Shown: one piece after another, positions 458 through 64,000 of the stretch
Numbering within the stretch: position 1 is the stretch's first letter
How the letters are laid out: the number at the start of each line of letters is the position of its first letter
Origin: an uncultured Chloroflexia bacterium
GTDB lineage: Bacteria > Chloroflexota > Limnocylindria > Limnocylindrales > CSP1-4
Assembly (NCBI GenBank): GCA_963825545.1
Contig: CAWGTR010000006.1
Location: 223,475 to 287,474 of the forward strand
Length of the DNA: 64,000 nt
Direction of reading: 5' to 3'
Made by a program: the position numbers and the translations under genes
The notes under the pieces: generated by a model
Told to the model about the DNA's origin: nothing
Databases searched by the model: none
What the model saw: the letters and a program-made list of their open reading frames with translations, nothing else

Positions 458-1081
458 TCAGTCGAGAGGCTGCCAGGTCCGAAGCGACCGGCCCCAGCGC
501 GCGATCGGGACGGCCGCGTCGGGGCCCTCGGCGATCGAGCGGCGGGCACGGGCAGTGGCGACGCTCTCGCCCCAGCCGGGCGGGACGAGACCCGACGCAA
601 GGTCGGCGAGCGGGGCCAGGACGAACAGCCGCTCGCGCGCCTCGGGGTGCGGCACGACGAGCAGCCGGGCGGCCTTCGCCGGGTCAGTTCGGGCTTCGAC
701 CGAGCGACCCTCGGGCGGCCGCTCGACGGCGAGGCGGGCGCGGCCGAACACGAGCAGGTCCAGGTCGAGCTCGCGCGGTCCCCAGCGCCGCCGCGGGCGC
801 CGCCCGAACGCCCGCTCGAGGCCCTTGAGCGCGATGAGCAGCGCGAGGGCGCCCGTCGAGGGGTGCGGACCGGCCGGTACGTCGAGCGCCACGGCGGCGT
901 TGCGGAACGGAGGCTGGTCGGTCACGCCGACGGGCGTCGTCGTGTACAGCCGGGATACGCCGACAAGACGCACGCCCGGCAACGCCGCGAGCGCACGGAT
1001 CGCCGCCGCCATGGTGGCCGGCGCGTCGCCGACGTTCGCGCCCAGACCGACGTAGGCGCGTGTCCGTCTCGGCCTGGCCAT
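458..1081 (-). CDS. folK: 2-amino-4-hydroxy-6-hydroxymethyldihydropteridine diphosphokinase (HPPK)
   Basis: AYVGLGANVGD...QPPFRNAAVAL...RWGPRELDLDLL...VVPHPEARERLFVLAPLADL are HPPK landmarks. Confidence 0.85.
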   Translation of the reverse strand: MARPRRTRAYVGLGANVGDAPATMAAAIRALAALPGVRLVGVSRLYTTTPVGVTDQPPFRNAAVALDVPAGPHPSTGALALLIALKGLERAFGRRPRRRWGPRELDLDLLVFGRARLAVERPPEGRSVEARTDPAKAARLLVVPHPEARERLFVLAPLADLASGLVPPGWGESVATARARRSIAEGPDAAVPIARWGRSLRTWQPLD

Positions 1082-3779: not shown

Positions 3780-4136
3780 TTGACCGCCATCTGGTACGTC
3801 GTCGGGTTCGCCTTCGCCGGCGTCTCGTTCGTCCTGCTGACGATCGGCGCGGCCTGGCTGATCTCGCATCGGAACCGCGGGGACGAGCACAAGGGCCTCC
3901 CCTACGAGTCGGGGATCGACACCTTCGGCGACACCCACGGGCGGTTCGGGCTGTCGTTCTACATCTACGCCTTGCTGTTCGTGGCGTTCGACATCGAGGT
4001 GGTCTTCATCTACCTCTGGGCGATCGTCTTCCGGGATCTCCTCATCGGCGGCTTCGTGAGCATGCTCGTGTTCGTGGCGGTCCTGCTGCTCGGGCTGGCC
4101 TACGCCTGGCGGAAGGGCGTCCTCACGTGGCGCTGA
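3780..4136 (+). CDS. nuoA: NADH-quinone oxidoreductase subunit A
   Basis: Three TM segments plus YESGI...FDIEVVFIYLWA motifs. TTG 3780 is preceded by GAGG. The longer ORF-track start at 3687 adds a non-conserved leader. Confidence 0.85.
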   Translation: MTAIWYVVGFAFAGVSFVLLTIGAAWLISHRNRGDEHKGLPYESGIDTFGDTHGRFGLSFYIYALLFVAFDIEVVFIYLWAIVFRDLLIGGFVSMLVFVAVLLLGLAYAWRKGVLTWR

Positions 4137-4858
4137 AGGGCAACCCCCCGGCGGCGGACCTTCCCGCGCCGGCAGCGCCCGACGCAGCGACGAACGCGGT
4201 CGTGGTCGCCGGCGGGCGCGACCTGATCGTGCCGATCGTGGTCCCGAACACGCTCTGGGAATCGCCCACCACGGCGGCGTACGGCGGCCAGCCCGTCGGC
4301 GACACCCACCTGCGCGAGTTCGGGGCGACCGAGCTGGGGCGCCACGACGACGCCCGCTGGGGCGCCCTCGAGGTGATCCCGACGAAGGCGGACATCGTCC
4401 TCGACCTGATCCGGGCCAACAGCCTCTGGCCGCTGCTGTCGGGGCTGGCCTGCTGCGCGATCGAGATGATGTCGGCGGCGACCTCGAAGAACGACATGGA
4501 CCGCTGGGGCATGTTCCCGTTCCGGGCCAGCCCGCGCCAGGCCGACGTGCTGATCGTCGCCGGCACGCTGACGACGAAGATGGCCGGTCCGCTCATCCGC
4601 CTGTGGGAGCAGATGCCCGAGCCGAAGTGGTGTGTCGCGATGGGCGACTGCACCTGCTCGGGCGGCCGCTACAAGCGCAGCTACTCGACGATCCAGGGGA
4701 TCGACCGGGTCCTCCCGGTCGACGTCTACGTGCCCGGCTGCCCGCCCCGCCCGGAAGGGCTGATCTACGGGATGATGCGGCTCCAGCAGCTCGTCCTGGA
4801 GCGGCGCGGCCACTGGCCGGAGCGAGCGATCGGCCCGACGGTCCCGGACGGGGTCTGA
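4127..4858 (+). CDS. nuoB: NADH-quinone oxidoreductase subunit B (N2 cluster subunit) with an N-terminal extension
   Basis: SLWPLLSGLACCAIEMM, ASPRQADVLIVAGT, GDCTCSGG and VPGCPPRPE. GTG 4127 overlaps the nuoA stop. The start is uncertain because several in-frame GTGs lie downstream. Confidence 0.85.
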   Translation: MALKGNPPAADLPAPAAPDAATNAVVVAGGRDLIVPIVVPNTLWESPTTAAYGGQPVGDTHLREFGATELGRHDDARWGALEVIPTKADIVLDLIRANSLWPLLSGLACCAIEMMSAATSKNDMDRWGMFPFRASPRQADVLIVAGTLTTKMAGPLIRLWEQMPEPKWCVAMGDCTCSGGRYKRSYSTIQGIDRVLPVDVYVPGCPPRPEGLIYGMMRLQQLVLERRGHWPERAIGPTVPDGV

Positions 4859-4863: not shown

Positions 4864-5416
4864 ATGGATCGAGCCCTCAAGCGCCGCCTCGAGGCCCGCT
4901 TCGGAGAGCGGCTGCTCGGACCCGTCCGGCAGCGCCACGACGAGACCGAGATCCGGGTCGCGCCGGGCGACCTGCCCGAGGTGATGCGCGCCCTCCACGA
5001 CGAGCCCGACCTGCGCTTCGAGTCGCTGATGGACCTGTGCGGCGTCGACACCGGGACCGCGATGCAGACGGTCTACCACCTGTGGAGCGCGCACCACCTC
5101 GGACTGGCTCCGGGTGATCGCCGACGGCCTGTCCCGCGACGAGCCTCGGGTCCCGTCGGTCACCTTCCTGTGGAAGGGCGCCGAGTGGCAGGAGCGCGAG
5201 GCGTACGACATGTTCGGGATCGCGTTCGAGGGGAACCGCGACCTGCGCCGGATCTATATGCCGCCGGACTACACGAGCTTCCCGCTGCGCAAGGACTTCT
5301 ACCTGCCCGATGACGCCGCCCGCTCGCCCGGCGGCGGTGTCCGCCAGATGGAGCAGACCCACGCCCCGACGAACGCCACGGCCGAGGCGGCCGTGCGCCG
5401 CGCCAAGGTGAGCTGA
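4864..5416 (+). CDS. nuoC: NADH-quinone oxidoreductase subunit C, interrupted by a +1 frame change near 5095
   Basis: The N-terminal part ([21 protein letters not shown]...[10 protein letters not shown]) is in the frame of ATG 4864. The conserved C-terminal part ([66 protein letters not shown]) is in the next frame, ending at 5416. Confidence 0.8.
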
Positions 5417-5426: not shown

Positions 5427-6644
5427 ATGACCGTCGTTCGCCATCCGTCCGCCGACGACCCGCGGGTCATGCTCGACGAGGAGGTCGGGGTCTTCGAGCC
5501 CGTCCCGCCGTATCCCCCGCGGACCGAGCGTGAGGCCGAGTTCTACTCGCTCGGCGCGGGCGAGATGTTCATCAACATGGGGCCCCAGCACCCATCGACC
5601 CACGGCGTCCTGCGGGTCGTCCTCAAGATCGAGGGCGAGCGGGTCGTGGACCTCGACCCGGTCCTCGGCTACCTCCACCGCGGGGTCGAGAAGCTGTGCG
5701 AGAACGCCGACTACCACCACACGATCGCCTACACCGACCCGCTCGAGTACGTCAGCGCGCTGTTCAACGAATGGGCGCCGGTGATGGCCTTCGAGAAGCT
5801 GCTCGACGTCGAGGTGCCCCGCCGGGCCGAATACATCCGGGTCCTGTCCGGGGAGCTCAACCGGGTCGCCAGCCACGCCCTGTTCATGGGCTGGATGGCG
5901 CTCGACCTGGGCGGCCTCACCCCGATCCTGTGGAGCTTCATCGAGCGCGACGACATCGTCGACATGCTCGCCTCGCTGACCGGCCAGCGGATGCTCTTCA
6001 ACTACTTCCGGATCGGCGGCGTCAACGGCGACCTGAACCACGAGTTCATGAGCCGGCTCGGGACGTGGATGAGCAAGGCGACCGAGCAGATCGAGGCGAA
6101 CATCACGCTGCTCAACGAGAACGAGATCTTCGTCCGGCGGATGCGCGGCCTGGGAATCCTCGACCGTGAGACGGCCTTCCGGATGTGCATGACCGGCCCG
6201 AACATCCGCGCCTCGGGCGTGCCGCTCGACATGCGCCGCTCGCACCCGTACAGCGTTTACCCGGAGCTCGAGTTCGACATCCCGACCCGCCAGGAGGGCG
6301 ACTGCCTGGCGCGCTACCTCCTCCGCCTCGAGGAGATCAAGCAGAGCCTCCGGATCATCGACCAGTGCCTGAACCAGATGCCCGACGGGCCGATCATGGC
6401 CAAGCTGCCGCGGCTCATGCGACCCCGACCCGGGCGGGCCTACGCGGCCGTCGAGGGTCCGCGCGGCCAGTACGCGACCTATGCGATCAGTGACGGGACG
6501 GACCAGCCGTACCGGATGCGGATCCACGACCCGAGCTTCGTCCACCTCCAGGCCGTCGGGCTGCTGACGCCCGGCAACCTGATCGCCGACACGATGGCGA
6601 TCATGGCCTCGCTCGATCCGATCATGGGCGGCGTCGACAAGTAG
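5427..6644 (+). CDS. nuoD: NADH-quinone oxidoreductase subunit D
   Basis: NMGPQHPSTHGVLR, LGYLHRGVEKL and the C-terminal SLDPIMGGVDK. 405 aa. Confidence 0.95.
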   Translation: MTVVRHPSADDPRVMLDEEVGVFEPVPPYPPRTEREAEFYSLGAGEMFINMGPQHPSTHGVLRVVLKIEGERVVDLDPVLGYLHRGVEKLCENADYHHTIAYTDPLEYVSALFNEWAPVMAFEKLLDVEVPRRAEYIRVLSGELNRVASHALFMGWMALDLGGLTPILWSFIERDDIVDMLASLTGQRMLFNYFRIGGVNGDLNHEFMSRLGTWMSKATEQIEANITLLNENEIFVRRMRGLGILDRETAFRMCMTGPNIRASGVPLDMRRSHPYSVYPELEFDIPTRQEGDCLARYLLRLEEIKQSLRIIDQCLNQMPDGPIMAKLPRLMRPRPGRAYAAVEGPRGQYATYAISDGTDQPYRMRIHDPSFVHLQAVGLLTPGNLIADTMAIMASLDPIMGGVDK

Positions 6645-7991
6645 ATGACGATGCTCAGCCGCTCGTTCGGCCGCCTGACCCTGCCGGGCAAGATCATCTT
6701 CACGGTCGTCCCCCTCGTCCTCATCGTCGGCGGGGTGGCCACGGCGGCCGCGATCATCGCCGCGCCGCTCGTCATCGACTTCGTCGGGGCGAACCTGCCG
6801 CTCTTCCGGTTCGTGCTGGCGGCGACGGTCGTGCTGCTGATGACCGTCCCGACGGCGTTCCTGATCATCTACATGGAGATGAAGGTCATCGCCCTGATGA
6901 ACCTTCGCTACGGGCCGGACCGGGTGGGCCCGTTCGGCTCGCTCCTGTCGGTCGTGCACGGGCTCAAGGTCCTGATGAAGGAGGACTTCACCCCGACCGG
7001 TGCCGACTCGGTGGTCTTCACCTGGGCGCCGGTGGTCGTCTACATGGCCAGCGTGATGACCCTGCTGGTGCTGCCGTTCGCCCCGGGCCTGTTCGGGCAG
7101 GACCTCAACATCGGGCTGCTGTACTTCTTCGCGATGGGCGGGCTGGGCGTCGTCGGGCTGCTCATGGCCGGCTGGTCGAGCTTCAACAAGTACTCGCTGC
7201 TCGGCGGGCTGCGCTCGGCGGCGCAGGTCGTCAGCTACGAGATTCCGCTGACCCTGTCGGTCGTCGGGATCATCCTCCTTGCCGGGACCCTGAGCCTCAA
7301 CAAGATCACGCTCGACCAGTCCGGCAGCCTGTTCGACTGGTTCGTGTTCAAGCAGCCGCTGGCGTTCCTCATCTTCTTCATCGCCGCTACGGCCGAGGCC
7401 AACCGGACGCCGTTCGACCTGACCGAGGCCGACTCGGAGATCGTGGCCGGGTTCGCCACCGAGTACTCGGGGATGCGCTTCGGGTTCTTCTTCTTCGCCG
7501 AGTACGTGAACGTGTTCATCATCTCGGGGCTCACCGTCGCGCTCTTCTTCGGCGGCTGGAACGCCCCGTTCGACTGGCCCTGGCCGATCACGCCGCACCC
7601 GGATCCGGGCGGCATGGGGGTCGGCCTGCTCGTCGCCATCGGGCTCGTGCCGCCGATCCTGATCCTCGTCCTCGGGCTGCCGTTCTATCTCGTCAACAGC
7701 CGGACGAAGCTGTGGCAGGCCCTGGTGATCGGGTTCGTCCTGTTCAACGTCCTCGCGGTCGCCGCGCTCATCGGGCTTGCCTTCCTCAGCTTCGACTGGG
7801 TCGTCGGCCTGTTCTGGTTCCTGATGAAGACGTACGCCTTCGTGTTCATGTTCGTCTGGATGCGCGGCACGCTGCCGCGGGTCCGGATCGACCAGCTCAT
7901 GGGCTTCGCCTGGAAGTGGCTGCTGCCCGCCTCGCTGCTCAACCTGTTCGTGACCGCCCTGGCGATCGTGCTCGTCGAGGGCGTTCGATGA
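6645..7991 (+). CDS. nuoH: NADH-quinone oxidoreductase subunit H, enlarged (448 aa; extra N-terminal and internal TM segments)
   Basis: EMKVIALMNLRYGPDRVGPFG, AAQVVSYEIPL, AEANRTPFDLTEADSEIVAGFATEYSG and RGTLPRVRIDQLM. Confidence 0.9.
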   Translation: MTMLSRSFGRLTLPGKIIFTVVPLVLIVGGVATAAAIIAAPLVIDFVGANLPLFRFVLAATVVLLMTVPTAFLIIYMEMKVIALMNLRYGPDRVGPFGSLLSVVHGLKVLMKEDFTPTGADSVVFTWAPVVVYMASVMTLLVLPFAPGLFGQDLNIGLLYFFAMGGLGVVGLLMAGWSSFNKYSLLGGLRSAAQVVSYEIPLTLSVVGIILLAGTLSLNKITLDQSGSLFDWFVFKQPLAFLIFFIAATAEANRTPFDLTEADSEIVAGFATEYSGMRFGFFFFAEYVNVFIISGLTVALFFGGWNAPFDWPWPITPHPDPGGMGVGLLVAIGLVPPILILVLGLPFYLVNSRTKLWQALVIGFVLFNVLAVAALIGLAFLSFDWVVGLFWFLMKTYAFVFMFVWMRGTLPRVRIDQLMGFAWKWLLPASLLNLFVTALAIVLVEGVR

Positions 7992-8001: not shown

Positions 8002-8664
8002 ATGACGTTCGTCCCGGGCCTTGGCCTCGTCAAGGGGATGGCGCTGACCCTGCGCCGCTTCTTCGAGCCGAAGGTGACGAACCTGTACCCGGAGGTCCCC
8101 GCCCAGATCCCGCCCAAGTTCCGCGGCCGGCTGCAGCTCCTGTACGACGAGTGGGGCACGCTCAAGTGCGAGACCTGCTTCCAGTGCGCCCAGGCCTGCC
8201 CGATCGAGTGCATCGACATGGGCGGTACCGACACCAAGGGCCGTTACGCCGTCCACTGGGGGGCGCCCGAGACGTACGGCGAACGGCGCGAGGAGTCGGC
8301 CCTCCGGCGGTCGGGCCGGACCGTGCCCGACCCCGCTTACGAGCACTTCCACGGGATCGATCTGGCGGCCGTGGATGCCGTTCTCGACGAGGTCGACCAC
8401 GATCCGCGCGAGATGCTCCGGATCCTGGCCGCGATCCAGGACGCGTACGGCTACGTACCCGTGGCCGCGCTCAAGCGGGTCAGCGAGGCGACCGGCGCGT
8501 GGTACGCGATGCTGTATGGCACGGCGACCTACTACGACCACCTCGCGGTCGGGGCACGGGAGACGGCGCCGAGCGCCGACGACGCCTACGTCGGAGCGCT
8601 CGAGGGGGCCCTCCACGGTGGCATCGACGACGGGGCGGCGAGCCGGGACGCGGGCGCCCGATGA
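8002..8664 (+). CDS. nuoI: NuoI-like ferredoxin half fused to a NuoE N-terminal helical domain (I::E' chimera)
   Basis: The N-terminal half carries NLYPEVPAQIPPKFRGR and one CETCFQCAQACP motif, as in NuoI. The C-terminal half carries MLRILAAIQDAYGYVPVAALKRVSEATGAWYAMLYGTATYYDHL, as in the NuoE four-helix domain. I see only 5 Cys in total, no second CxxCxxCxxxCP, and no thioredoxin-like 2Fe-2S part. Confidence 0.75.
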   Translation: MTFVPGLGLVKGMALTLRRFFEPKVTNLYPEVPAQIPPKFRGRLQLLYDEWGTLKCETCFQCAQACPIECIDMGGTDTKGRYAVHWGAPETYGERREESALRRSGRTVPDPAYEHFHGIDLAAVDAVLDEVDHDPREMLRILAAIQDAYGYVPVAALKRVSEATGAWYAMLYGTATYYDHLAVGARETAPSADDAYVGALEGALHGGIDDGAASRDAGAR

Positions 8665-10004
8665 CCGGCCTCCTGAAGACTCCGACCGGCTGGCCGAAGG
8701 TCCTCATCGAGTCGCCCCAGGCCGTCGACCCGACCGACCTCGATCGAGCCGTCCGCGATGGCGCCTTCGAGGCGCTCCGGACCGCGGTCCGGGCGATGAC
8801 CCCGAGCCAGGTCATCGGGGCGGTGGTCGGCTCCGGCCTGCGCGGTCGCGGCGGCAGCGGCTTCCCGACCGGGGCGAAGTGGCGGGTCGCGGCGAGCGCC
8901 CCCGGACCCACCCGCTACGTCGTCGCCAACGGCTACGGCGCCGACCCGGCGGTCCAGACCGACCGGACGCTCATGGAGCTGGCCCCGTATGCCGTGGTCG
9001 AGGGGGTCGCCCTGGCGGCCTATGCGATCGGGGCCGGCGAGGCGATCATTGCCGTCCGGGCCGATGCCGCCGAGGCGATCCGCCGGCTTGACGCGGCGAT
9101 CGGCGCCGCCGAGGAGGCCGGCTTCGCGGGGCCCGACGTCCTGGAGTCCGGCTGGGACCTGTCGATCCAGGTCCGCCCCGTCCAGGGTGCCTACATGCTC
9201 GGCGAGGAGACCGTCCTGCTCAAGGCGCTCGAGGGCAAGCGGGGCCAGCCCGAGCAGCGGCCGCCGCACCCGGCGGAGCGCGGGCTGTTCGGCCGCCCGA
9301 CGGTCGTCGACAACGTCCAGACCCTGGCGAGCGTGCCCTGGATCGTCCGCAACGGACCCGAGGCATACGCCGCGATCGGCTCGACGGCGAGCCCAGGGAC
9401 GATCCTCGTCCAGCTCCGCGCGCCGGCCGGCGGTGGGATCGCCGAGGTGCCGCTCGGGACCCCGCTCCGGGAGCTCATCGCGCTCGCCGGCCCGCGGGCC
9501 GGCCGATCGGACGGCGGCCGGCCGGTCAAGGCGGTCCTCGTCGGCGGACCCGCGGGTGGGTTCCTGCCGGCGGACCTGCTCGACACGCCGTTCGACTTCG
9601 AGTCGCTCCGCGACGTCGGGGCGCACGTCGGATCCGGCTCCATCGTCGTCGCCGACGACCGGGCCTGCGTCGTCGACCTGGCCCGGCTGCTCAGCCGCTT
9701 CTGCGCCGATCAGGCCTGTGGCAAGTCGATCCCCTGCCGGATCGGCACCCGTCGCCTGTCCGAGATCGCCGACCGGATCGCGGTCGGCACGCCGCGCCCG
9801 ACCGATGCCGGGCTGGCCGCCGACCTGGCCGCCGACATCCAGGGTTCCGGCCTGTGCGACCACGAGCGGCTGGCGACGCTGCCGATGACCAGCGCGATGC
9901 GATACTTCCGTGCCGAGCTCGACGACCATCTCCTCCGCAGCACCTGCCCCGCCGGCGTCTGCCACCCGATCAAGGTGGCCGTCGGGGCCGACCGAGGCGC
10001 TTGA
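8661..10004 (+). CDS. nuoF: divergent NuoF-like flavoprotein subunit (F')
   Basis: GLRGRGGSGFPTGAKW and GAYMLGEETVLLKALEG are present. ATG 8661 overlaps the upstream stop (ATGA). The dinucleotide-site segment reads ANGYGADPA rather than CNADE-type, and the N3 region reads FCADQACGKSIPC...GLC. Confidence 0.8.
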   Translation: MTGLLKTPTGWPKVLIESPQAVDPTDLDRAVRDGAFEALRTAVRAMTPSQVIGAVVGSGLRGRGGSGFPTGAKWRVAASAPGPTRYVVANGYGADPAVQTDRTLMELAPYAVVEGVALAAYAIGAGEAIIAVRADAAEAIRRLDAAIGAAEEAGFAGPDVLESGWDLSIQVRPVQGAYMLGEETVLLKALEGKRGQPEQRPPHPAERGLFGRPTVVDNVQTLASVPWIVRNGPEAYAAIGSTASPGTILVQLRAPAGGGIAEVPLGTPLRELIALAGPRAGRSDGGRPVKAVLVGGPAGGFLPADLLDTPFDFESLRDVGAHVGSGSIVVADDRACVVDLARLLSRFCADQACGKSIPCRIGTRRLSEIADRIAVGTPRPTDAGLAADLAADIQGSGLCDHERLATLPMTSAMRYFRAELDDHLLRSTCPAGVCHPIKVAVGADRGA

Positions 10005-12640
10005 TGACCGACCTGATCGTCCGACCCGAAGGCGCCCCGCCCGCCGAGCCGGGCGTCGCCGAGACCCTCGCGGAGCGACTGCTCGACGTGTCGGCGCCGC
10101 AGCGCCCGATGAGCGCCCCGGTGATCCGGATCGAGGTCGACGGGCGGGTCGTCGAGGGTCGCGACGGCCAGACGATCCTCGAGGTCTGCCGCGACAACGG
10201 GATCGAGGTCCCGACGCTGTGCTACGAGCCGAAGCTGCCCGGCTTCGGCGCCTGCCGGATGTGCGTCGTCGAGGTCGAGGGCGAAGAGCACCCGCCGATC
10301 AGCTGCTCGCGCGCGGCAGAGGCCGGCATGAAGGTCCAGACCCAGACCGACGAGGTGCGCCGCCTGCGGGCCACGAACCTCGAGCTGATCTTCAGCGACC
10401 ACAACGCCTACTGCCTGCCGCCCTGCCAGAACAAGTGCCCGAGCCACATCGACATTCCCGGCTTCCTCAAGCAGAACGCCGAGGGCGAGTGGCGCGAGTC
10501 GACCCGGATCTTCAAGCGGACGATCCCCTTCCCGAGCGTGCTCGGACGGGTCTGCCCGGCGCCGTGCGAGGAGCACTGCCGGCGCGACGAGGTCGATGAG
10601 GCGATCGCCATCCGTGACAGCCACCGCTACGCCGGGGACCAGGTCATCAAGGCGATGCTCGACGACGGGATCGACCCGCCGCTGCCATTCGAGCCCCAGC
10701 CGAAGACGGGTCGCCGGGCGGCCGTCATCGGGTCCGGCCCGGCCGGGATGAGCGCCGCCTACTACCTCCTCCTGGCCGGTCACGACGTGACCGTCTTCGA
10801 GCGCGACCCGGCGCCCGGCGGGATGCTCCGCTACGGGATCCCGCAGTACCGGCTCCCGAAGATCGAGGTCCTCGAGGCGGAGTACGAGTCGGTCAGCCGG
10901 CTGGGCGGGAAGATCGTATGCAACCAGGCCCTCGGGCGCGACTTCACCCTCGACGACCTCCAGGGCCAGGGCTACGACGCCGTCCTGGTGGCGATCGGCT
11001 GCTACGACACGAACAAGCTGGGCATCCCGAACGAGGACGCCGACGGCGTCATCGACGGCCTCGAATACCTCCAGACGGCCACCCTCGGCCTGCCCTACCC
11101 CGGGCACCGCGGGAAGCGCGTCGTCGTGATCGGCGGGGGGTTCACCTCGATGGACTGCTCGCGGACGTCGATCCGCCAGGGTGCCGCCGAGGTGACCCTC
11201 GTCTATCGCCGGGACATGAAGGACATGCCCGCCTCGAACGAGGTCCACGAGGCGATCGAGGAAGGCGTCCAGGCGATCTTCCAGGCCGCCCCGACGCGGG
11301 TCATCGTCGACGAGAAGACCGGCCGGGTGAGCGGCGTCGAGTTCATCCGCAACAAGCTCGGCGAGCCCGACGCGTCGGGCCGGCGGCGGCCCGAGCCGTC
11401 GCCCGGCACGGAGTTCACAATCGATTGCGACCGGGTCCTCCTGGCGATCGGCCAGGGCCCCGACCTGACCTGGATCGGGCCGGGCTCGGAGGGTCCCGAG
11501 GCGACGAAGCAGCGCCGGCTGAAGGCCGACCCGGTGACGTTCGAGACCGGACGGCCCGGCGTGTTCGGGACCGGCGACGTGCGGGTCGGCGCGGCCACCG
11601 TCGTCCAGGCGATCGCCGAGGGCCGCCGGGCGTCGTACGCCGCGGACGCCTACCTGCGTGGGATGGACCTCGGGACGATCCGGGCCCGCCAGACGCTCGC
11701 CGAGCCGCAGCCCGAGTTCCTGTCGATCGTGCCATTTACGAGCGAGGTCAAGGAACCCCGCTACCGGCTCAAGGCGATGGACGCCGAGGTCCGCAACAAG
11801 AGCTACCTCGAGTACGAGATCCCGTACACCCCCGCGGAGGCGGTCGCGGAGTCGACCCGCTGCCTGCAGTGCACCTGCGAGGCGATTGGGTTCTGCGACC
11901 TGCGCCGGCTCGGAATCGAGTACGGGACGACACTGCGCACGCTCGAGCCGCAGTTCCACCAGGGCGCGGGCTACCGGAGCGTCACCGAGAACCGCTTCAC
12001 CGGGATCAACCACGACTACGTGCGCGACGACAGCCACGCCTTCATCCTCCGCGAGCCGTCGCGCTGCATCGACTGCGGCCGCTGCGCCCAGGTCTGCTCC
12101 GAGGTCGTCGGGGCCGCCTGCTACGACTTCATGCGGATCGGCTTCGACACGCTCGTGACGACCCCGCTCGACATGAGCCTCAACGACACCCCGTGCGTGT
12201 CCTGTGGGCGCTGCGCCGAGACCTGCCCGACCGGGGCGCTGATGCCGAAGCCACGGGTGCTCGAGAAGTACGAGGTCGACGAGAGCCGCTGCATCCTGTG
12301 CGGGATCTGCGTCGATGCCTGTCCGTACGACGCCCTCCGCGACGGCGCCGACTTCGAGCTCAGCCACGTCGATCGCTCCGAGCCGATGGTCGACCTGATC
12401 GCCCTGGCGGCCATCGACCGGGAGACGGAGGCGACCTACATCCGCCGCGAGCGCGACTGGGTCGCCCGCGCCACCGCCGCCGGGCGTCCACCGGATCCGT
12501 CGCGCCTCCTGCCGGTCCTGCCGCCATCCGTCACCGGGGGCGGGGCGGGCCTGGCCGCCGCGCGCCACGGAGAGCGAACGGGCGGCAACGGCGCCTCCGG
12601 CAACGGCGCGGCCGGCGCCGGCCACGCCCATCACGAGTAG
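10004..12640 (+). CDS. NuoG-type Fe-S protein with an inserted GltD-like FAD/NAD(P)H oxidoreductase module and no molybdopterin-like domain (G'::GltD)
   Basis: Domain order: a 2Fe-2S motif (CYEPKLPGFGACRMCVVEVEG...ISC); GltD-type Fe-S sites (YCLPPCQNKCPSHIDIPGFLK, GRVCPAPCEEHC); GxGxxG sites (AVIGSGPAGMSAAYYL, VVVIGGGFTSMD); then CIDCGRCAQVC, CVSCGRCAETCPTGAL and CILCGICVDACPYDAL. The start overlaps the nuoF' stop (TGATG). Confidence 0.8.
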   Translation: MTDLIVRPEGAPPAEPGVAETLAERLLDVSAPQRPMSAPVIRIEVDGRVVEGRDGQTILEVCRDNGIEVPTLCYEPKLPGFGACRMCVVEVEGEEHPPISCSRAAEAGMKVQTQTDEVRRLRATNLELIFSDHNAYCLPPCQNKCPSHIDIPGFLKQNAEGEWRESTRIFKRTIPFPSVLGRVCPAPCEEHCRRDEVDEAIAIRDSHRYAGDQVIKAMLDDGIDPPLPFEPQPKTGRRAAVIGSGPAGMSAAYYLLLAGHDVTVFERDPAPGGMLRYGIPQYRLPKIEVLEAEYESVSRLGGKIVCNQALGRDFTLDDLQGQGYDAVLVAIGCYDTNKLGIPNEDADGVIDGLEYLQTATLGLPYPGHRGKRVVVIGGGFTSMDCSRTSIRQGAAEVTLVYRRDMKDMPASNEVHEAIEEGVQAIFQAAPTRVIVDEKTGRVSGVEFIRNKLGEPDASGRRRPEPSPGTEFTIDCDRVLLAIGQGPDLTWIGPGSEGPEATKQRRLKADPVTFETGRPGVFGTGDVRVGAATVVQAIAEGRRASYAADAYLRGMDLGTIRARQTLAEPQPEFLSIVPFTSEVKEPRYRLKAMDAEVRNKSYLEYEIPYTPAEAVAESTRCLQCTCEAIGFCDLRRLGIEYGTTLRTLEPQFHQGAGYRSVTENRFTGINHDYVRDDSHAFILREPSRCIDCGRCAQVCSEVVGAACYDFMRIGFDTLVTTPLDMSLNDTPCVSCGRCAETCPTGALMPKPRVLEKYEVDESRCILCGICVDACPYDALRDGADFELSHVDRSEPMVDLIALAAIDRETEATYIRRERDWVARATAAGRPPDPSRLLPVLPPSVTGGGAGLAAARHGERTGGNGASGNGAAGAGHAHHE

Positions 12641-12652: not shown

Positions 12653-13204
12653 GTGCCGATCCCGGACACGATCCCGGTCATCGGGGCGACTTGGAACGAC
12701 GCCCTGTTCGTGATCTTCGCCGGGATCCTCCTCGGATCCGGGCTGCTCGTCGTCACCCTCCGCGACATCATCCGCTGCGGGCTGGCGATGATCGTCTGCT
12801 TCGGCGCCCTGGCCGGCATCTACGTCATCCTCGGCGCACCGCTCATCGCCGGGGCCCAGGTGCTCGTCTACATCGGCGCGATCAGCGTGCTCATCCTGTT
12901 CGCCATCATGCTCACCCAGACGAAGGCCGCCCCGGCCCGCCTCGTGTTCCAGACCCAGGCGGTCCCGGCGGCGATCGCCGCGCTCGTCCTGGCAGTGATC
13001 CTCGCGCTCGTGGTCGTGTCGACGGACTGGGGTGCCGCGGCGGCGGTCGCGCGGACGGCGACGGACGACATGGCCCGCCTCCTGTTCCACGACTATGTCC
13101 TGCCGTTCGAGGTCGTGAGCGTCCTGCTCCTCGCGGCGGTCGTCGGCGGGGTCTACCTTGCCAAGCGCGAGGTCGACGCGACCGAGGAGCGCGGCCCGCG
13201 ATGA
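12653..13204 (+). CDS. nuoJ: NADH-quinone oxidoreductase subunit J
   Basis: GTG follows GGAGGAG. TM-rich, with AGAQVLVYIGAISVLILFAIML and a C-terminal GGVYLAKRE. Confidence 0.9.
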   Translation: MPIPDTIPVIGATWNDALFVIFAGILLGSGLLVVTLRDIIRCGLAMIVCFGALAGIYVILGAPLIAGAQVLVYIGAISVLILFAIMLTQTKAAPARLVFQTQAVPAAIAALVLAVILALVVVSTDWGAAAAVARTATDDMARLLFHDYVLPFEVVSVLLLAAVVGGVYLAKREVDATEERGPR

Positions 13205-13512
13205 CGAACTCCCTCGATGCCTACCTGATCCTGTCCGGCCTGCTGTTCTGCCTCGGGACCTTCGGCTTCCTTGCCCGCCGCAACGCGATCAGCATGCTCA
13301 TGTCGATCGAGCTGATGCTCAACGCCGTCAACCTCTCGATCGTCGCCTTCGGGGCGTTCGTGCCCAAGCTCCAGGGCCAGGGCTCGATCATCGCCCTGGT
13401 GGTGATGGCCGTGGCGGCGGGTGAGGCGACGGTCGGGCTGGCCATCGTCATGGCGATCTTCCGCAACCGGCGGACGCCGCTCGTCGACGAGTACGACTCG
13501 ATGCGGCAGTAA
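13201..13512 (+). CDS. nuoK: NADH-quinone oxidoreductase subunit K
   Basis: ATGA overlap with nuoJ. LMSIELMLNAVNLSIVAF...AAGEATVGLAIVMAIFRNRRT. Confidence 0.95.
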   Translation: MTNSLDAYLILSGLLFCLGTFGFLARRNAISMLMSIELMLNAVNLSIVAFGAFVPKLQGQGSIIALVVMAVAAGEATVGLAIVMAIFRNRRTPLVDEYDSMRQ

Positions 13513-13516: not shown

Positions 13517-15487
13517 ATGCCGTACGACGCGCTGATCGTCGCCATCCCGGCGCTGCCGATCGCCGGCTTCGCCTTCACCGCCCTGTTCGGCCGGCGCATC
13601 CAGGCGCGGCTCGGCCGGAACGCGGCCAGCGCCGTCCCGCTCGCCGTGGTGATCCTGAGCTGGCTGGCGGCGATGATCGTCGTGGTCCCCGCGCTCGGGC
13701 ATGCCGAGCCATTCGGCGAGCGCGGTCTCGACTTCACGCTGTACACCTGGATCCCGGCCGGGAACTTCGTCGTCGACGTCGGGTTCCACGTCGACGCCCT
13801 GACGGCCTGCCTCCTGATCGTGGTGACGACGATCGGGATGCTCGTCCACGTCTACTCGGTCGGGTACATGGCCCACGACCCCGGGACGTGGCGGTTCTTC
13901 GCCTACCTCAACCTGTTCATGTTCTCGATGCTGCTGCTCGTGCTGGCCGACAGCTTCCTCGTGATCTTCGTGGCCTGGGAGCTGGTCGGGCTGTCGAGCT
14001 ACCTGCTGATCGGGTTCTGGTACCGCAAGCCGACCGCGGCGCTCGCCGCGAAGAAGGCGTTCATCGTCAACCGTGTCGGGGACGTCGGCTTCGCGCTCGG
14101 GATCATGCTCATCTTCGTGAGCCTCGGGACGCTCAACGTCCAGGCGGTGCTCGGGTCGATCGGGACGCTCGACCAGTTCACGATCGTGGCCATCGCGCTG
14201 CTCGTGTTCTGTGGCGCAGTCGGCAAGAGCGCCCAGTTCCCGCTCCACGTCTGGCTGCCCGACGCGATGGAGGGCCCGACCCCCGTCTCGGCGCTGATCC
14301 ATGCCGCGACGATGGTCAACGCCGGGGTCTACCTGATCGCGCGGGTCAACCCGATCTTCGGCCACGCCCAGGGCGCGATGGTCGTGGTGGCGGCGATCGG
14401 GATCTTCACCGCGCTGCTCGCCGCGTCGATCGCGTTCACCCAGACCGACATCAAGCGCGTCCTCGCCTACTCGACGTTGTCCCAGCTCGGCTACATGTTC
14501 GCCGCGCTCGGCGTCGGCGCCTGGATCGGCGCCATCTTCCACCTCATGGCCCACGGTTTCTTCAAGGGCCTCCTGTTCCTCGATTCGGGGTCGGTGATCC
14601 ACGCCGTCCACGAGGAGCAGGACATGCGCCGGATGGGCGGGCTGTGGCGCAAGATCCCGATCACGTACTGGACGATGCTCATCGGCGCGCTGGCGATCTC
14701 GGGGATCCCGCCGCTGGCCGGCTTCTTCAGCAAGGACGAGATCCTCGGCGAGGCGTTCAAGAACGGCTTCCTCGTCGTCTGGGCGATCGGCTTCGCGGTC
14801 GCCGGGATGACCGCCTTCTACATGTTCCGGCTGATGGGGATGACCTTCTGGGGCCCGAGCCACGTCGACCCGAAGGTGGAGCCCACGATCCATGAGTCGC
14901 CCCGCTCGATGACCGTGCCGCTCATCCTGCTGGCGATCGCGTCGATCTTCCTCGGGCTCGTGATCGGCGTGCCGCTCGGTGCCGGCCTGATCAACACCTG
15001 GCTCGAGCCGGTGTTCGCCGAGACGATCGCGCTGACTGGCGGCGAGGCGGCTCCGTTCGGCCCGCTTGACGTAGCCCTGATCCTGGCCAGCGTGTCGATC
15101 GCGACGATCGGGATCATCGTCGCCTGGCGCTTCTTCGGGGTCGAGCTCGGCGCCCTCCGCCGCGCTCCGCGGCCGAAGGAGGTCACGGCGATCGCCACGG
15201 CCAGCCCCCTGACCCGGTTCCTCTACCGCGCTTCGCTCAACAAGTGGTGGTTCGACGACCTCAACGACCTGTTGTTCATCCGGATCGGCGGGCGGATCGC
15301 GGCCGCGGCCTGGTGGTTCGACCGGACGATCATCGACGGCACGGTCAACGAGATCGGCACAATCGCTGTCGGCGTCGGCCGGGAGCTGCGCCGGGTCCAG
15401 ACCGGTCGGGTCCAGAACTACGCCCTCGGGATCGCCATCGGGCTGATCGTGATGGCCGGCTCGTACCTCGTGATCGTGGGGCGCTGA
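13517..15487 (+). CDS. nuoL: NADH-quinone oxidoreductase subunit L
   Basis: WELVGLSSYLLIGFW, KSAQFPLHVWLPDAMEGPTPVSALIHAATMV and YSTLSQLGYMF. 656 aa. Confidence 0.95.
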   Translation: MPYDALIVAIPALPIAGFAFTALFGRRIQARLGRNAASAVPLAVVILSWLAAMIVVVPALGHAEPFGERGLDFTLYTWIPAGNFVVDVGFHVDALTACLLIVVTTIGMLVHVYSVGYMAHDPGTWRFFAYLNLFMFSMLLLVLADSFLVIFVAWELVGLSSYLLIGFWYRKPTAALAAKKAFIVNRVGDVGFALGIMLIFVSLGTLNVQAVLGSIGTLDQFTIVAIALLVFCGAVGKSAQFPLHVWLPDAMEGPTPVSALIHAATMVNAGVYLIARVNPIFGHAQGAMVVVAAIGIFTALLAASIAFTQTDIKRVLAYSTLSQLGYMFAALGVGAWIGAIFHLMAHGFFKGLLFLDSGSVIHAVHEEQDMRRMGGLWRKIPITYWTMLIGALAISGIPPLAGFFSKDEILGEAFKNGFLVVWAIGFAVAGMTAFYMFRLMGMTFWGPSHVDPKVEPTIHESPRSMTVPLILLAIASIFLGLVIGVPLGAGLINTWLEPVFAETIALTGGEAAPFGPLDVALILASVSIATIGIIVAWRFFGVELGALRRAPRPKEVTAIATASPLTRFLYRASLNKWWFDDLNDLLFIRIGGRIAAAAWWFDRTIIDGTVNEIGTIAVGVGRELRRVQTGRVQNYALGIAIGLIVMAGSYLVIVGR

Positions 15488-15491: not shown

Positions 15492-17039
15492 ATGGGCGAC
15501 CTGACCATCCCGCTGCTCAGCGCGATCACCTTCACGCCGCTCGTCGGGGCGCTGGTCATCGCGGTCGTCCCGCGCACCGCCGAACGGGCGATCCGCTGGA
15601 TCGCGCTGGCGACGTCGCTGATCGCGTTCGGGCTGTCGCTCGTGCTGCTGGCGGCGTTCGACCCGCTCAAGCCGGGCTTCTCGTTCGTCGAGCAGGTGGA
15701 CTGGATCCCCGTCTTCGGGATCCAGTACAAGGTCGGGGTCGACGGCCTGTCGGCCGTGCTCGTGGTGCTCACGACGACGCTGTCGTGGATCAGCATCCTC
15801 GCCTCGTTCGGGCCGATCCACGAGCGGATCAAGGAGTACATGATCTCGTTCCTGATCCTCGAGGTCGGCCTGATCGGCGTGTTCGTGGCGCTCGACCTGT
15901 TCCTGTTCTACGTGTTCTGGGAGGTCGTCCTCGTCCCGATGTACCTGATCATCGGGATCTGGGGCGGCTCAAACCGGGTGTACGCGACGATCAAGTTCGT
16001 GCTGTACACGCTCGTCGGGTCGCTGCTGATGCTGGTCGCGATCCTGGCCACGGCCTTCACCTACCAGTCGGCGACCGGCAGCTGGGACCACGCCTTCGAC
16101 TTCGAGTACCTGCGCAGCTTCGCCGCGACAGTCGGGTTCGCGAATGGGCTCCAGGTGTTCGCGTTCCTGGCCTTCTTCCTCGCCTTCGCGATCAAGGTCC
16201 CCATGTTCCCGTTCCACACCTGGCTGCCGGATGCCCACGTCGAGGCCCCGACGGCCGGGTCGGTGATCCTCGCGGCGATCATGCTCAAGCTCGGCGCCTA
16301 CGGGTTCATCCGCTTCGCGGTGCCGCTGTTCCCCGATGCGGCCCACACGTTCGCGGTACCGATCATCGTGCTCAGCCTCATCGCGATCATCTATGGCGCG
16401 GTCGTCGCCCTCGTCCAGCCCGACCTCAAGAAGCTCATCGCCTACTCGTCGGTCAGCCACATGGGCTTCGTGACCCTCGGGATCTTCGTGTTCCAGCAGC
16501 AGGGCCTGCAGGGGGCGATCCTGCAGATGGTCAACCACGGGCTGATCACCGGGGCCCTGTTCCTCCTGGTCGGGGTGATCTACGAGCGGACCCACGACCG
16601 GACGATCGCCAGGATGGGCGGGCTGTCGGGCCGAACTCCGGTGTACGCCGCCGCATTCGGCTTCTTTGTCTTCGCCAGCGCCGGGCTGCCCGGGCTGTCC
16701 GGGTTCGTCGGCGAGTTCCTGGTGCTGGTCGGGACCTTCGCGGCCAGCCCGTACGCCGCGGCCATCGCCACGTTCTGCATGATCCTGGCGGCCGGCTACC
16801 TGCTCTGGATGTTCCAGCGCGTCTTCACGGGCGAGCTGTCCGACTTCCTGGCCGGCCTCGGCCAGCACCTGACCGACATCCGTCCGATCGAGATCGCGAC
16901 GCTCGCCCCGCTCGGGGCGATGATCGTCGTGTTCGGGCTCTTCCCCGGCCTCCTCCTGACGATCATCCAGGGCACCGTGGCGACCTTCACCGCGAGCGTC
17001 GGCGCCCACGACGTCGCCGTCCACCTGATGGTCCGGTAG
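15492..17039 (+). CDS. nuoM: NADH-quinone oxidoreductase subunit M
   Basis: FYVFWEVVLVPMYLIIGIWGG, FPFHTWLPDAHVEAPTAGSVILA and YSSVSHMGFV. Confidence 0.95.
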   Translation: MGDLTIPLLSAITFTPLVGALVIAVVPRTAERAIRWIALATSLIAFGLSLVLLAAFDPLKPGFSFVEQVDWIPVFGIQYKVGVDGLSAVLVVLTTTLSWISILASFGPIHERIKEYMISFLILEVGLIGVFVALDLFLFYVFWEVVLVPMYLIIGIWGGSNRVYATIKFVLYTLVGSLLMLVAILATAFTYQSATGSWDHAFDFEYLRSFAATVGFANGLQVFAFLAFFLAFAIKVPMFPFHTWLPDAHVEAPTAGSVILAAIMLKLGAYGFIRFAVPLFPDAAHTFAVPIIVLSLIAIIYGAVVALVQPDLKKLIAYSSVSHMGFVTLGIFVFQQQGLQGAILQMVNHGLITGALFLLVGVIYERTHDRTIARMGGLSGRTPVYAAAFGFFVFASAGLPGLSGFVGEFLVLVGTFAASPYAAAIATFCMILAAGYLLWMFQRVFTGELSDFLAGLGQHLTDIRPIEIATLAPLGAMIVVFGLFPGLLLTIIQGTVATFTASVGAHDVAVHLMVR

Positions 17040-18552: not shown

Positions 18553-19485
18553 TCAACCGGCCTCGGCTTCGATCGTACTGGCGACCAGCGACAGGACGCG
18601 TGCCGCGTCGTGCGGCGTGGCCAGGAAGCCGTCGGCGCGCTCCACGACCTCCGGCGGCGTCTCGTAGGCGCCGTGCACGGCGAGCGCGAGGCCCTGGGGC
18701 AGCCGGCCGGCGGCCCGCGCCTCGGCGATCGCGGCGAAGGCCTCGGCGTCGCTCCGGTCGTCGCCGAGGACGATCGCGGCACCGAACGGCCGGCTCGCCA
18801 GGAGCCGGGCGACCGCCGCTCCCTTCCCCCCGGCACCGGCCGGACGGAGCTCGACGATCCGGCGGCCGCGGAAGCGGGTGAGACGGTCGTGCCCGGTCTC
18901 GGGACCGAGCACCCGGTCCAGGGCGGCCTCGACCGACCGACCGGCGACGTCGGGATCCGGCGCGGCGCGGAAGTGGAACGCGACGGATGGGCCCTTGTCC
19001 TCGACGTACAGCCAGGCCGGCGAGCCAAGCTCACGGGCGACGGCCGTCCCGACCTCACGGGCGACGGCCGTCCCGACCTCGCGGGCGAGAGCCGTCGTCG
19101 CGTCGAGCGCCGGGTCCACGGCCAGCGACAGGCCGGCGATCCGGCCGCCCCTGGCCAGCCGCCCCTCCTGGAGCCCGTGGTCGCCGAGGTAGCCGACGCC
19201 ACCGACCCGGACCCGGGCGACGAGATCGGCCACCGTCCGTCCGCTCAGGACGACGACGCCCAGGCGCGCCGGTCGCGCGTCCGCGAGCCGGGCCAGCCGG
19301 CGCAGGGCGGTCCGCCCGAGCGGATCGATGGCCGCCGCCATCGGGTCGGGTGAGACCCGGGCGAGGGTCCCGTCGAAATCGGTCACGACCAGGAGCGGAC
19401 CGGGCGCCGCGGCGACGGCCCGGACAAGTCCGCGGATGTTCGGCCAGGGCTCTACCGGTGGGCCGGCCGCCGCGGCCGGGTTCAG
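18553..19485 (-). CDS. otsB: trehalose-6-phosphate phosphatase (HAD-IIB) domain region; no usable start codon in its own frame
   Basis: LLVVTDFDGTLARV, VVLSGRTV and LGDDRSDAEAF are HAD motifs. Upstream of the HAD motif this frame has no ATG/GTG/TTG until 19827, and that stretch is Arg-rich junk overlapping a better frame. Confidence 0.7.
   Translation of the reverse strand: MNPAAAAGPPVEPWPNIRGLVRAVAAAPGPLLVVTDFDGTLARVSPDPMAAAIDPLGRTALRRLARLADARPARLGVVVLSGRTVADLVARVRVGGVGYLGDHGLQEGRLARGGRIAGLSLAVDPALDATTALAREVGTAVAREVGTAVARELGSPAWLYVEDKGPSVAFHFRAAPDPDVAGRSVEAALDRVLGPETGHDRLTRFRGRRIVELRPAGAGGKGAAVARLLASRPFGAAIVLGDDRSDAEAFAAIAEARAAGRLPQGLALAVHGAYETPPEVVERADGFLATPHDAARVLSLVASTIEAEAG
19030..19101. 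repeat. 24-bp tandem duplication inside otsB (2 perfect units plus 1 degenerate)
   Basis: CTCACGGGCGACGGCCGTCCCGAC occurs at 19030-19053 and 19054-19077, followed by a diverged third unit. It encodes AREVGTAV-AREVGTAV-ARELG. Confidence 0.85.
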
Positions 19486-19805: not shown

Positions 19806-19872
19806 GGCGGGAGGGTACCAGTACCATGCGGCCGCGGCGCCCTCATCGGGGAACGGCTAGGATGACGGCCCC

Positions 19873-35396: not shown

Positions 35397-35443
35397 GGAT
35401 GTGGGGGAAGCCAGGGAGGTCCGCCTCCTGCACGGGCGCTGAG

Positions 35444-47820: not shown

Positions 47821-47850
47821 TTGACACCCCCTTCGCGACCGCCCCATAAT
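47821..47850 (+). promoter_or_regulatory. sigma-70-like promoter upstream of rpmH: TTGACA, 18 nt spacer, CATAAT
   Basis: TTGACA at 47821-47826 and CATAAT at 47845-47850. Confidence 0.55.

Positions 47851-61368: not shown

Positions 61369-64000
<2,632 letters not shown>

Follow-up and report, generated by a model that had tools for sequence, protein, structure and literature searches.

Strict specificity for NADH and an invariant NuoEFG module as electron input are usually ascribed to complex I. The nuo operon described here has a different input module. It lies in a 64,000-nucleotide stretch of DNA (hereafter the window, whose numbering is used for all coordinates) from an uncultured Chloroflexia bacterium (assembly GCA_963825545.1, contig CAWGTR010000006.1, positions 223,475 to 287,474), and our subject is the flavoprotein gene at 8661-10004 on its + strand, which we call F, together with the genes into which it is built. 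Relatives of F carry the database label 'NADH-quinone oxidoreductase subunit F', but its closest counterparts in sequence (E about 1e-108 to 1e-112) and in fold are the B subunits of the NfnABC and StnABC enzymes (structures 9bov/9bp5, 9n5u/9n5v, and 8oh5).

In NfnABC and StnABC, electrons from NADPH run along the path flavin adenine dinucleotide (FAD)-A7-A6-A3-A2-A1-B1-flavin mononucleotide (FMN), and A2-A4-A5 forms a dead-end side branch to a vestigial Fdh domain (PMC11829005, PMC10482914). The bifurcation site is B1-FMN-C1, and ferredoxin docks on NfnB and NfnC through their C-terminal domains (PMC11829005, PMC12018979). Such modules have also been predicted in complex I gene clusters: in Nuo-Bfu (Geobacter and others), reported for Deferribacteres, Proteobacteria, Planctomycetes, and Nitrospirae, three Bfu-type genes placed centrally among the nuo genes replace NuoEFG as electron input, and the complex is proposed to have a bifurcation-competent BfuBC core that carries out confurcation of NADH and ferredoxin (PMC9304861). 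Mbx-like complexes of the Mbx/Mrp type have no NuoF-like subunit, and a GltD-type NAD(P)H flavoprotein takes the position of NuoI and substitutes for it (Degli Esposti 2015, PMC4758237). Finally, in NfnL, the large subunit of NfnSL, the proximal [4Fe-4S] cluster beside the flavin is held by 3 Cys and 1 Glu (PMC12018979).

The locus in the window shares features with all of these. As in Nuo-Bfu, NuoEFG has given way to a Bfu-type module of three genes with nuo genes on either side; as in NfnABC, F is partnered by an NfnA-like protein that contains a GltD insertion and by an N-terminal domain of NfnC type; and as in Mbx-like complexes, a GltD-type NAD(P)H flavoprotein occurs at the NuoI position. 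However, the module is of the GltD-bearing Nfn/Stn type, stripped of its bifurcation parts, and its NfnC-like partner is without the C1 [2Fe-2S] domain. Unlike soluble NfnABC, it is wired into complex I, and whereas Mbx-like complexes have replaced NuoI, here NuoI is kept, split in two, and fused to the module. The main interest of the locus is this hybrid architecture around the F gene. We consider it probable, though well short of certain, that F is a Bfu-derived, re-tuned subunit with an FMN/NAD(H) site and a Glu-ligated cluster, serving in a hybrid complex I that would act as a dual NADH/NADPH:quinone oxidoreductase. In the full-text literature, with subscription-only papers outside its scope, we found no description of a GltD-bearing complex I module that splits NuoI, nor of a Cys-to-Glu swap at cluster N3.

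The F gene and its motifs are located as follows:

8661 to 10004, + strand: F, an F-like flavoprotein subunit of 447 amino acids; intact open reading frame (ORF) with Pfam, PDB, and Foldseek matches
8844 to 8873, + strand: residues 62-71, GRGGSGFPTG, the retained Gly-rich FMN/NAD loop, matching loop 162-171 of Thermococcus sibiricus NfnB
8925 to 8951, + strand: residues 89-97, ANGYGADPA, the remodeled segment on the nicotinamide/flavin side
9201 to 9236, + strand: residues 181-192, GEETVLLKALEG, retained, including E183, which is invariant (120/120)
9666 to 9965, + strand: spread ligands C336, H423, C429, and C434 of a Bfu-type B2 zinc site, from alignment with T. sibiricus NfnB
9699 to 9737, + strand: residues 347-359, the B1/N3 cluster motif F-C348-ADQA-C353-GK-S356-IP-C359 (FCADQAC/ACGKSIPC)
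9855 to 9869, + strand: C399-D-H-E402-R, the fourth cluster ligand and the residues after it, covarying with position 356

Pfam detected both domains of a NuoF-type protein (Complex1_51K, E = 7e-39; NADH_4Fe-4S, E = 4e-19), and as PDB matches reach down to 7e-112, the homology of F to NuoF-type proteins is no chance resemblance. To this extent, and in its fold, the protein is NuoF-like, as a preliminary description of this DNA had called it; the motifs quoted there (GRGGSGFPTG, GEETVLLKALEG, ANGYGADPA, ACGKSIPC, and FCADQAC) are all present in the ORF. With canonical NuoF/Nqo1/51-kDa subunits (E. coli, T. thermophilus, A. aeolicus, mitochondria) F shares the Gly-rich loop, the GEET motif (invariant in its clade, by which we mean throughout the 120 closest homologues of F, all of the same length), a Tyr in GAY..GEET, its place in a nuo operon, a presumed position at the peripheral-arm tip, and a short chain to which no further ferredoxin domains are added. 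F is only about 34% identical to E. coli NuoF, however, and falls below the cut-offs of all three NCBIfam NuoF equivalogs that an E. coli NuoF control passes: TIGR01959 (345 bits for F, cut-off 558.65, control 678), NF010120 (260, 389, and 425 bits, respectively), and NF008436 (245, 749, and 1001 bits).

The best PDB sequence matches were instead NfnB of Caldicellulosiruptor (9bov_B, 7e-112) and of T. sibiricus (9n5u_B, 2e-108), followed by Sporomusa StnB (8oh5_B) and HydB, with NuoF of complex I at 5e-80 and weaker; in bits, NfnB scored 378 and 367 against 273 for the best NuoF. An AlphaFold2 model of F built on 55 sequences (predicted local distance difference test, pLDDT, 91.6) gave the same order in Foldseek, with template modeling (TM) scores of 0.91-0.92 to NfnB (root-mean-square deviation 1.4-1.6 Å over about 428 columns) and 0.82-0.87 to NuoF. 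The Rossmann, ubiquitin-like, and four-helix-bundle core is common to F and NfnB/StnB, as are the Gly-rich loop, GEET, GGPxG, and the ligands of the B2 zinc site. The last of these is a Bfu trait, recognized by 3 Cys and a His that Bfu B subunits conserve and non-bifurcating homologues lack. The Zn ligands of T. sibiricus NfnB, C437, H524, C529, and C534 (PMC12018979), align with C336, H423, C429, and C434 of F, each of which is found in 120/120 clade members, whereas E. coli NuoF is without the C-terminal CPxxxC pair of the site.

F covers only the BfuB core, corresponding to about residues 106-531 of NfnB chains of 584-602 amino acids, and ends just past CPxxxC. Neither the C-terminal ferredoxin domain (B3/B4) nor the thioredoxin-like N-terminal domain (B5) is present, as no Fer4 or 2Fe-2S_thioredx match was obtained with Pfam. 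These comparisons identify F as a cut-down BfuB core of NfnB/StnB type rather than a NuoF orthologue. The substitutions are shared by the 120-member clade; the closest solved relatives are NfnB, StnB, and HydB, not NuoF.

Without gaps, the motif columns of F align to Caldicellulosiruptor (Csac) NfnB, T. sibiricus NfnB, StnB, and E. coli K-12 NuoF, in which the matching columns read CNADEMEPGTYKDR, GRYICGEET, NNVET, ESCGWCTPC, and CAHAP, with CNADEMEPG opposite ANGYGADPA. Through such gap-free alignments the pocket residues were mapped onto published structures. On the adenosine side, little has changed. In the loop, G62, R63, G64, G65, and G67 are 99-100% conserved in the clade. Csac NfnB contacts the nucleotide through F159, F294, K164, and E274 (PMC11829005). 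The equivalent of F159, which stacks on the adenine, is F68 (Phe in 99, Tyr in 19, and His in 1 of 120, with one not listed; the position is reported as always aromatic), and that of K164, at the adenine ribose, is K73 (120/120). F294, a second adenine-stacking residue, corresponds to residue 203, a His in F (His 90, Tyr 28, and Phe 1 of 120, one not listed). E183, the second Glu of GEET, is equivalent to Csac E274 and T. sibiricus E286 and is present in 120/120; E286 binds O2'/O3' of the adenosine and selects NADH over NADPH (PMC12018979). R200, the counterpart of T. sibiricus R303 at the beta-phosphate, is likewise found in 120/120, as are E182, T184, N218, and T221. GGPAG, the GGPSG motif, is near-invariant, and HVGSGS (loop 3) is mostly conserved.

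The substitutions fall elsewhere. In T. sibiricus NfnB, D195 adjoins the flavin and is a proposed stabilizer of the flavosemiquinone (PMC12018979); Y92 occupies its place in F. Aquifex NuoF E95, said to be fully conserved in complex I (PMC9299107, PMC11677225), reaches the nicotinamide by way of a water contact; D103 is likewise said to be fully conserved (PMC9299107). The place of E95 is taken by G93. In all, the acidic segment CNADE(S/G)EPG of NuoF (D94, E95, and E97 in Aquifex) is replaced by one with Y92, G93, and D95, the last as in Bfu enzymes rather than the final Glu of NuoF. Q220 stands in the place of the Glu in NNVET. The Bfu residues A201-F202-M203 have become V98-Q99-T100 (variable in the clade, of the form V/T/A-x-T), and F281 has become Y178. 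The altered segment itself is held firmly, with N90-G91-Y92-G93-A94-D95-P96 conserved at 97-100% in the clade. Over the family at large, Asp never occurs at position 92, where the residue is Tyr, Phe, Ile, Val, or Met, and position 93 is mostly Glu, with Gly in the clade of the window and a few others; position 220 drifts in sister lineages (E, A, Q, L, or V). The pocket of F thus reads as remodeled, not decayed: the adenosine contacts and the NADPH-excluding Glu are kept, and the changes are all on the flavin/nicotinamide side.

A switch of the F site from NADH to NADPH, one way in which the changed nucleotide specificity of the preliminary description could be understood, was rejected, since E183 is invariant and the adenine and ribose contacts are kept.

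The second altered region is that of the iron-sulfur cluster B1, the N3 cluster of complex I. In place of the NuoF ligand set CxxCxxC...C, F has C353-GK-S356-IP-C359...C399, and the middle Cys is missing in 120/120 clade members, in which C348, C353, and C359 are each invariant. Position 356 is Thr in 94 and Ser in 26 of these, never Cys, so that the Ser first pointed out at the middle position holds for the window but is the minority state of its clade. Its partner is found at position 402, just beyond the fourth ligand. The two positions were compared in the 488 of 506 sequences in which C353, C359, and C399 are present and aligned. Where position 356 is Cys (302/488), Glu402 never occurs (0/302; Gly in 300, Pro in 1, Ala in 1), while all 186 sequences with Thr, Ser, or Ala at 356 have Glu402 (186/186). 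On a neighbor-joining (NJ) tree inferred with these columns masked, the coupled state changed at least 5 times (4-6 times across 30 bootstrap trees). The lineages concerned include the deep P0125 lineage (Ala356, CGLEA), the clade of the window (CDHER), a clade with CNHER that branches among Cys356 lineages, and a large clade with CGLEY/CGHEI.

This repeated, exception-free coupling with the loss of Cys356 is best explained if Glu402 takes over as fourth ligand of a retained [4Fe-4S] cluster, together with Cys353, Cys359, and Cys399. A carboxylate in place of one Cys of a [4Fe-4S] cluster would resemble NfnL; that is another protein and another cluster, and we infer the Glu ligation in F from covariation only. 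The early suggestion that cluster ligation has changed is supported, but the compensating residue would be Glu402 rather than the upstream Cys348 to which attention had been drawn.

Two other replacement ligands were considered. Cys348, which is separated from Cys353 by four residues, was demoted: it is present in only 123/186 sequences without Cys356, and about half of the sister lineages have Thr356, with position 348 there usually Met, Leu, Ala, Asp, or Val, while Glu402 always tracks the loss. By this pattern Cys348 reads as a later, subclade-specific addition. Ligation through the oxygen of Thr/Ser356 is unlikely, as the P0125 lineage has Ala356 yet keeps Glu402.

The genes around F form a nuo operon of about 3.8-18.5 kb on the + strand, in the order A-B-C-D-H-IE-F-G-J-K-L-M-N, in which the complex I membrane and Q-module genes nuoA, B, C, D, H, J, K, L, M, and N are all together:

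3780 to 4136, + strand: nuoA, start approximate (tblastn with the nuoA product of syntenic locus L082, 81% identity)
4103 to 4858, + strand: nuoB, start approximate (Pfam Oxidored_q6; tblastn with L082 nuoB)
4912 to 5407, + strand: nuoC, broken by a 1-nucleotide insertion near 5091 (tblastn in two frames)
5427 to 6644, + strand: nuoD (Pfam Complex1_49kDa, 3e-86)
6645 to 7991, + strand: nuoH (Pfam NADHdh, 2e-104)
8002 to 8664, + strand: IE fusion of 220 amino acids, NuoI N-half plus NuoE/NfnC N-domain (PDB, NCBIfam, Pfam)
10004 to 12640, + strand: G-like subunit of 878 amino acids (PDB, Pfam, NCBIfam)
12653 to 13204, + strand: nuoJ (ORF translation)
about 13201 to 13512, + strand: nuoK (ORF translation)
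about 13517 to 15487, + strand: nuoL (ORF translation)
15492 to 17039, + strand: nuoM (ORF translation)
17047 to 18519, + strand: nuoN (ORF translation)

F thus lies between nuoH/nuoI' and 'nuoI/nuoJ, not between nuoE and nuoG. Its ATG shares ATGA (8661-8664) with the stop of the upstream IE gene, and its TGA stop (10002-10004) has one base in common with the ATG of the G gene (TGATG, 10002-10006). The order of nuoJ-N is supported in locus L082 by Pfam (Oxidored_q3, Oxidored_q2, Proton_antipo_M), and synteny of nuoJ, nuoL, and nuoM across loci by tblastn.

The partners of F are not those of canonical complex I: among the operon genes there is neither a NuoE [2Fe-2S] domain for cluster N1a nor a NuoG molybdopterin-like domain. 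In IE, residues 9-81 match NuoI 6-86, carrying the first CxxCxxCxxxCP motif (PDB search), and for residues about 118-181 the match is confined to the helical N-terminal domain of NfnC/StnA/NuoE; the Pfam model 2Fe-2S_thioredx is accordingly covered at positions 2-58 of 145. As IE has no Cys past residue 70, the N1a/C1 [2Fe-2S] cluster is absent from it, and the BfuC partner of the B1-FMN-C1 flavobicluster is reduced to its N-terminal helical domain. IE proteins of the sister lineages P0121 and P0125 are longer (281-289 amino acids) and keep a Cys-bearing C-terminal domain (L082, 8156-9001; L084, 7927-8796; e.g., ICRCPAC...DCH). Loss of the [2Fe-2S] domain is therefore derived and limited to the clade to which the window belongs.

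The G-like subunit matches NfnA/StnC over residues 40-795 (9bov_A, 5e-165; 9n5u_A, 4e-144; 8oh5_C, 2e-143), with the Pfam domains Fer2_4, Fer4_20, Pyr_redox_2, Fer4_Nqo3, and Fer4_7. Its order is that of an Nfn/Stn-type A subunit, that is, BfuA with a GltD/NfnL insertion: an N-terminal [2Fe-2S] domain, a GltD/NfnL-like part with 2x[4Fe-4S], FAD, and NAD(P)H sites, NuoG-type clusters, and finally the C-half of NuoI (CILCGICVDACP...). The nucleotide site GGGFTSMD...VYRR aligns with GGGNTAMD...LYRR of the Csac protein. G contains no molybdopterin/Fdh domain, and the NuoG model is matched at positions 1-98 of 606 only; instead of the pterin-less Fdh-like domain of NfnA, the C-terminal 131 amino acids match NuoI 86-152. 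The 121-position NCBIfam NuoI model is accordingly divided, with positions 1-65 in IE and 71-116 in G, the latter portion at 12250-12640. As there is no intact nuoI between nuoH and nuoJ, we conclude that nuoI has been split between its two cluster motifs, and that the three-gene cassette sits in the gap, fused at both ends. The 64-kb window holds no second canonical nuoEFG.

Two cluster-ligand positions of G differ from the template. K170 of StnC/NfnA, a ligand of the FAD-proximal [4Fe-4S] cluster that is important for activity, is replaced by His (about His203, RDSHRY) in G of the window and in the four distant relatives L081, L082, L084, and L086, and StnC C114 lies opposite an Ile in G of the window.

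To follow the distribution of the arrangement, one genome per species was scanned, yielding 370 stretches with relatives, of which the best 80 were used for locus counts. Nearly all of these 80 are titled as metagenome-assembled genomes of Chloroflexota, Chloroflexia, or Candidatus Limnocylindrales, the exceptions being one Methylomirabilota and one Anaerolineaceae title. The order nuoD-H-IE-F-G(GltD)-J-L-M was found in 75 of the 80 loci; of the remaining 5, three stop at contig edges and two (L016 and L027) break off inside G. IE-F-G lies within the nuo cluster also in the distant P0121 (57% F identity), P0125 (48%), and P0134 (42%), while P0175 (39%) has nuoB-IE-F-G only. The lineage is a large one, to which thousands of metagenome proteins also belong. 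The hybrid complex I is a feature of soil and freshwater Chloroflexota.

Some of these loci deserve separate mention. In L016 (9339-9640) and L027 (5921-6220), both from the SLM_LV1_BS study, G ends after about 35 codons with unrelated sequence beyond, the cause being a rearrangement or else a chimeric assembly. The P0175 loci L086 and L087 (7746-12774) contain a nuoB-like gene with IE, F, and G and no membrane-subunit genes nearby; this cassette may be soluble or may be attached in another way.

Pairwise comparison of the window with six syntenic loci gave ratios of nonsynonymous to synonymous substitution (dN/dS) of 0.14-0.33 for F. Conservation is concentrated where function is expected: the 62 pocket and metal-site positions have a mean top-residue frequency of 0.958, against 0.826 overall, and 0 of 10,000 random sets were as high. 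The surface of F is therefore relatively free and the active-site region tightly held. Together, these values indicate that F is under clear purifying selection and that its altered motifs are fixed, in agreement with the initial opinion that the changes do not mark a dead protein. The GltD segment of G is 83-94% identical across loci, among the most conserved parts of the operon.

By analogy with NfnABC/StnABC, a path for electrons through the hybrid can be proposed. NADPH would be oxidized at the FAD in the G-like subunit, a site that is probably one of the main points of electron entry, and its electrons would pass along A7-A6-A3-A2. The A4 branch offers an obvious exit, because the A5/Fdh part has been replaced by the C-half of NuoI; from A2-A4 electrons could thus proceed to N6a/N6b, built from the two NuoI halves, then to N2 and quinone. 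F, as FMN-B1-A1, would join this chain at A2. With the Gly-rich loop, K73, E183, R200, and the aromatic residue at 203 kept, it presumably still binds FMN and the adenosine diphosphate (ADP) part of NAD(H), and because the ADP-binding residues and FMN-binding motifs are invariant, it would most likely form a second, NADH-type entry. With the acidic residues on the flavin side replaced (Y92, G93, and Q220) and the bifurcation hallmarks gone, the site would no longer bifurcate, and its flavin would differ in potential and reactivity. Taken to its full extent, this scheme describes a two-site, proton-pumping complex I in Limnocylindrales-type Chloroflexota, with NADPH oxidized at a GltD-type FAD and NADH at a re-tuned FMN that has Tyr for the Asp near the flavin and a Glu-ligated N3-type cluster, one Fe-S chain, and a two-polypeptide NuoI; such an enzyme could respire NADPH directly, could equilibrate NADH with NADPH as a built-in transhydrogenase, and would represent an independent recruitment of an input module onto the 11-subunit core. 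We regard this fuller version as a tentative possibility, on balance doubtful.

Several observations count against a re-tuned, working F. That F binds FMN, oxidizes NADH, and ligates a cluster through Glu is in each case predicted from the sequence; the lack of a partner [2Fe-2S] cluster and of several residues conserved in complex I is also the pattern expected of a slide toward a structural role; and electrons of the NfnABC template can pass from FAD to the NuoI clusters without the F branch. F is moreover the fastest-evolving subunit of the peripheral arm, its dN being larger than that of G by a factor of 2-2.6 and than that of nuoD by a factor of 3-5. An NJ tree of the short family with Bfu-type and NuoF-type proteins, disturbed by frameshifted fragments, gave no supported origin (bootstrap 12/60), and for the Bfu origin we therefore rely on the match scores, the B2 zinc ligands, and the likeness of the partner to NfnA. 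The alternative is that F is a catalytically silent structural remnant in an NADPH-only enzyme, stabilizing G and the anchor formed by the NuoE N-domain, with or without FMN. The bypass of B1/FMN on the template path would permit this, as would the missing partner domain, the loss of the flavin-adjoining Asp and the Aquifex-type E95, and the drift of position 220 in sister lineages, and the dN of F is the highest or near-highest of the operon (similar to nuoJ, nuoL, and nuoM), with G among the lowest. An empty pocket, however, would hardly account for nucleotide and flavin contacts that are the most conserved part of F, nor for three remaining Cys ligands that are invariant in every sequence examined, and the constant pairing of the lost Cys with Glu402 implies selection to keep the cluster. 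We judge a silent F unlikely, while giving it serious weight.

The other readings carry far less. That the module still bifurcates or confurcates, coupling oxidation of NAD(P)H and ferredoxin to quinone reduction in the manner of Nuo-Bfu, is suggested by its Bfu derivation and by the BfuABC genes in mid-nuo position for which Schut et al. 2022 proposed this in other phyla (PMC9304861). With the C1, B3/B4, and B5 domains all missing, and with V/T/A-x-T and Tyr standing where bifurcating members have their AFM and F281 hallmarks, it is very unlikely. We give just as little credence, if not less, to F being an ordinary NuoF orthologue of an NADH-specific complex I whose substitutions are neutral drift of the lineage: the operon, the two Pfam domains, and the label of its relatives are what such a protein would have, but it would be expected to reach the NCBIfam cut-offs that E. 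coli NuoF passes, to lie nearer to NuoF than to NfnB, StnB, and HydB in sequence and fold, and to be without the Bfu zinc site. Its partners should then also include a NuoE [2Fe-2S] domain, a NuoG molybdopterin-like domain, and an intact NuoI, rather than being NfnA-like and NuoI-fused, and the substituted residues are invariant instead of drifting. A pseudogene or an assembly artefact, finally, would fit with the 1-nucleotide frameshift in nuoC of the same operon, a sign that the assembly or gene set is not flawless, yet F is an intact ORF translationally coupled to both neighbors, with 120 homologues of the same length, synteny in 75 loci, a dN/dS far below 1, and a confident AlphaFold2 model, which together make this explanation barely credible.

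If F is indeed a re-tuned, Bfu-derived subunit of a hybrid enzyme, this lineage has taken its input module from an NADPH-oxidizing transhydrogenase and welded it into a split NuoI, and it probably also burns NADPH through the G-like subunit. This would provide a route for NADPH into the respiratory chain with energy conservation, and a second, independent example of complex I gaining its electron-input module. It would also constitute a natural experiment on how flavin site and N3 cluster tune reactivity, a question that the repeated Cys-to-Glu swap opens to direct testing. For annotation, labels such as 'NuoF', 'glutamate synthase small subunit', and 'NuoI' hide the architecture, and genomes may be scored as lacking NuoG, NuoE, or NuoI. 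Many Chloroflexi genomes appear to hold 13 of the 14 complex I subunits, with only NuoG lacking (Spero et al. 2015, PMC4453560).

The break in nuoC was located by tblastn, which matched 4912-5088 in frame 2 and 5087-5407 in frame 3. Relative to L001, a locus 96-99% identical in which nuoC is intact, the shift amounts to a single extra G; it is most simply an assembly error and alternatively a real frameshift.

Elsewhere in the window, dnaN (44461-45579, - strand), dnaA (46087-47847, - strand), and yidC (48597-49910, + strand) place a chromosomal replication origin region about 30 kb from the nuo operon, and secA lies at 61369-63981 (- strand). An 1814-amino acid ORF (29952-35396, - strand) has protein-O-mannosyltransferase (PMT) domains only in residues about 1090-1550. 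Two further ORFs, 35399-36847 (+ strand, 482 amino acids) and 40560-42842 (- strand, 760 amino acids), have a coding-like GC content at third codon positions and no Pfam match at E<=1e-5. In L082, whose F is 57% identical to that of the window, the operon is flanked by HPPK and methyltransferase genes upstream and a trehalose-phosphatase gene downstream. ORFs 458-1081 (- strand), HPPK-like by eye, and 18553-19827 (- strand) are at the equivalent flank positions in the window; if they correspond to the flanks of L082, the whole neighborhood is conserved and not the operon alone.

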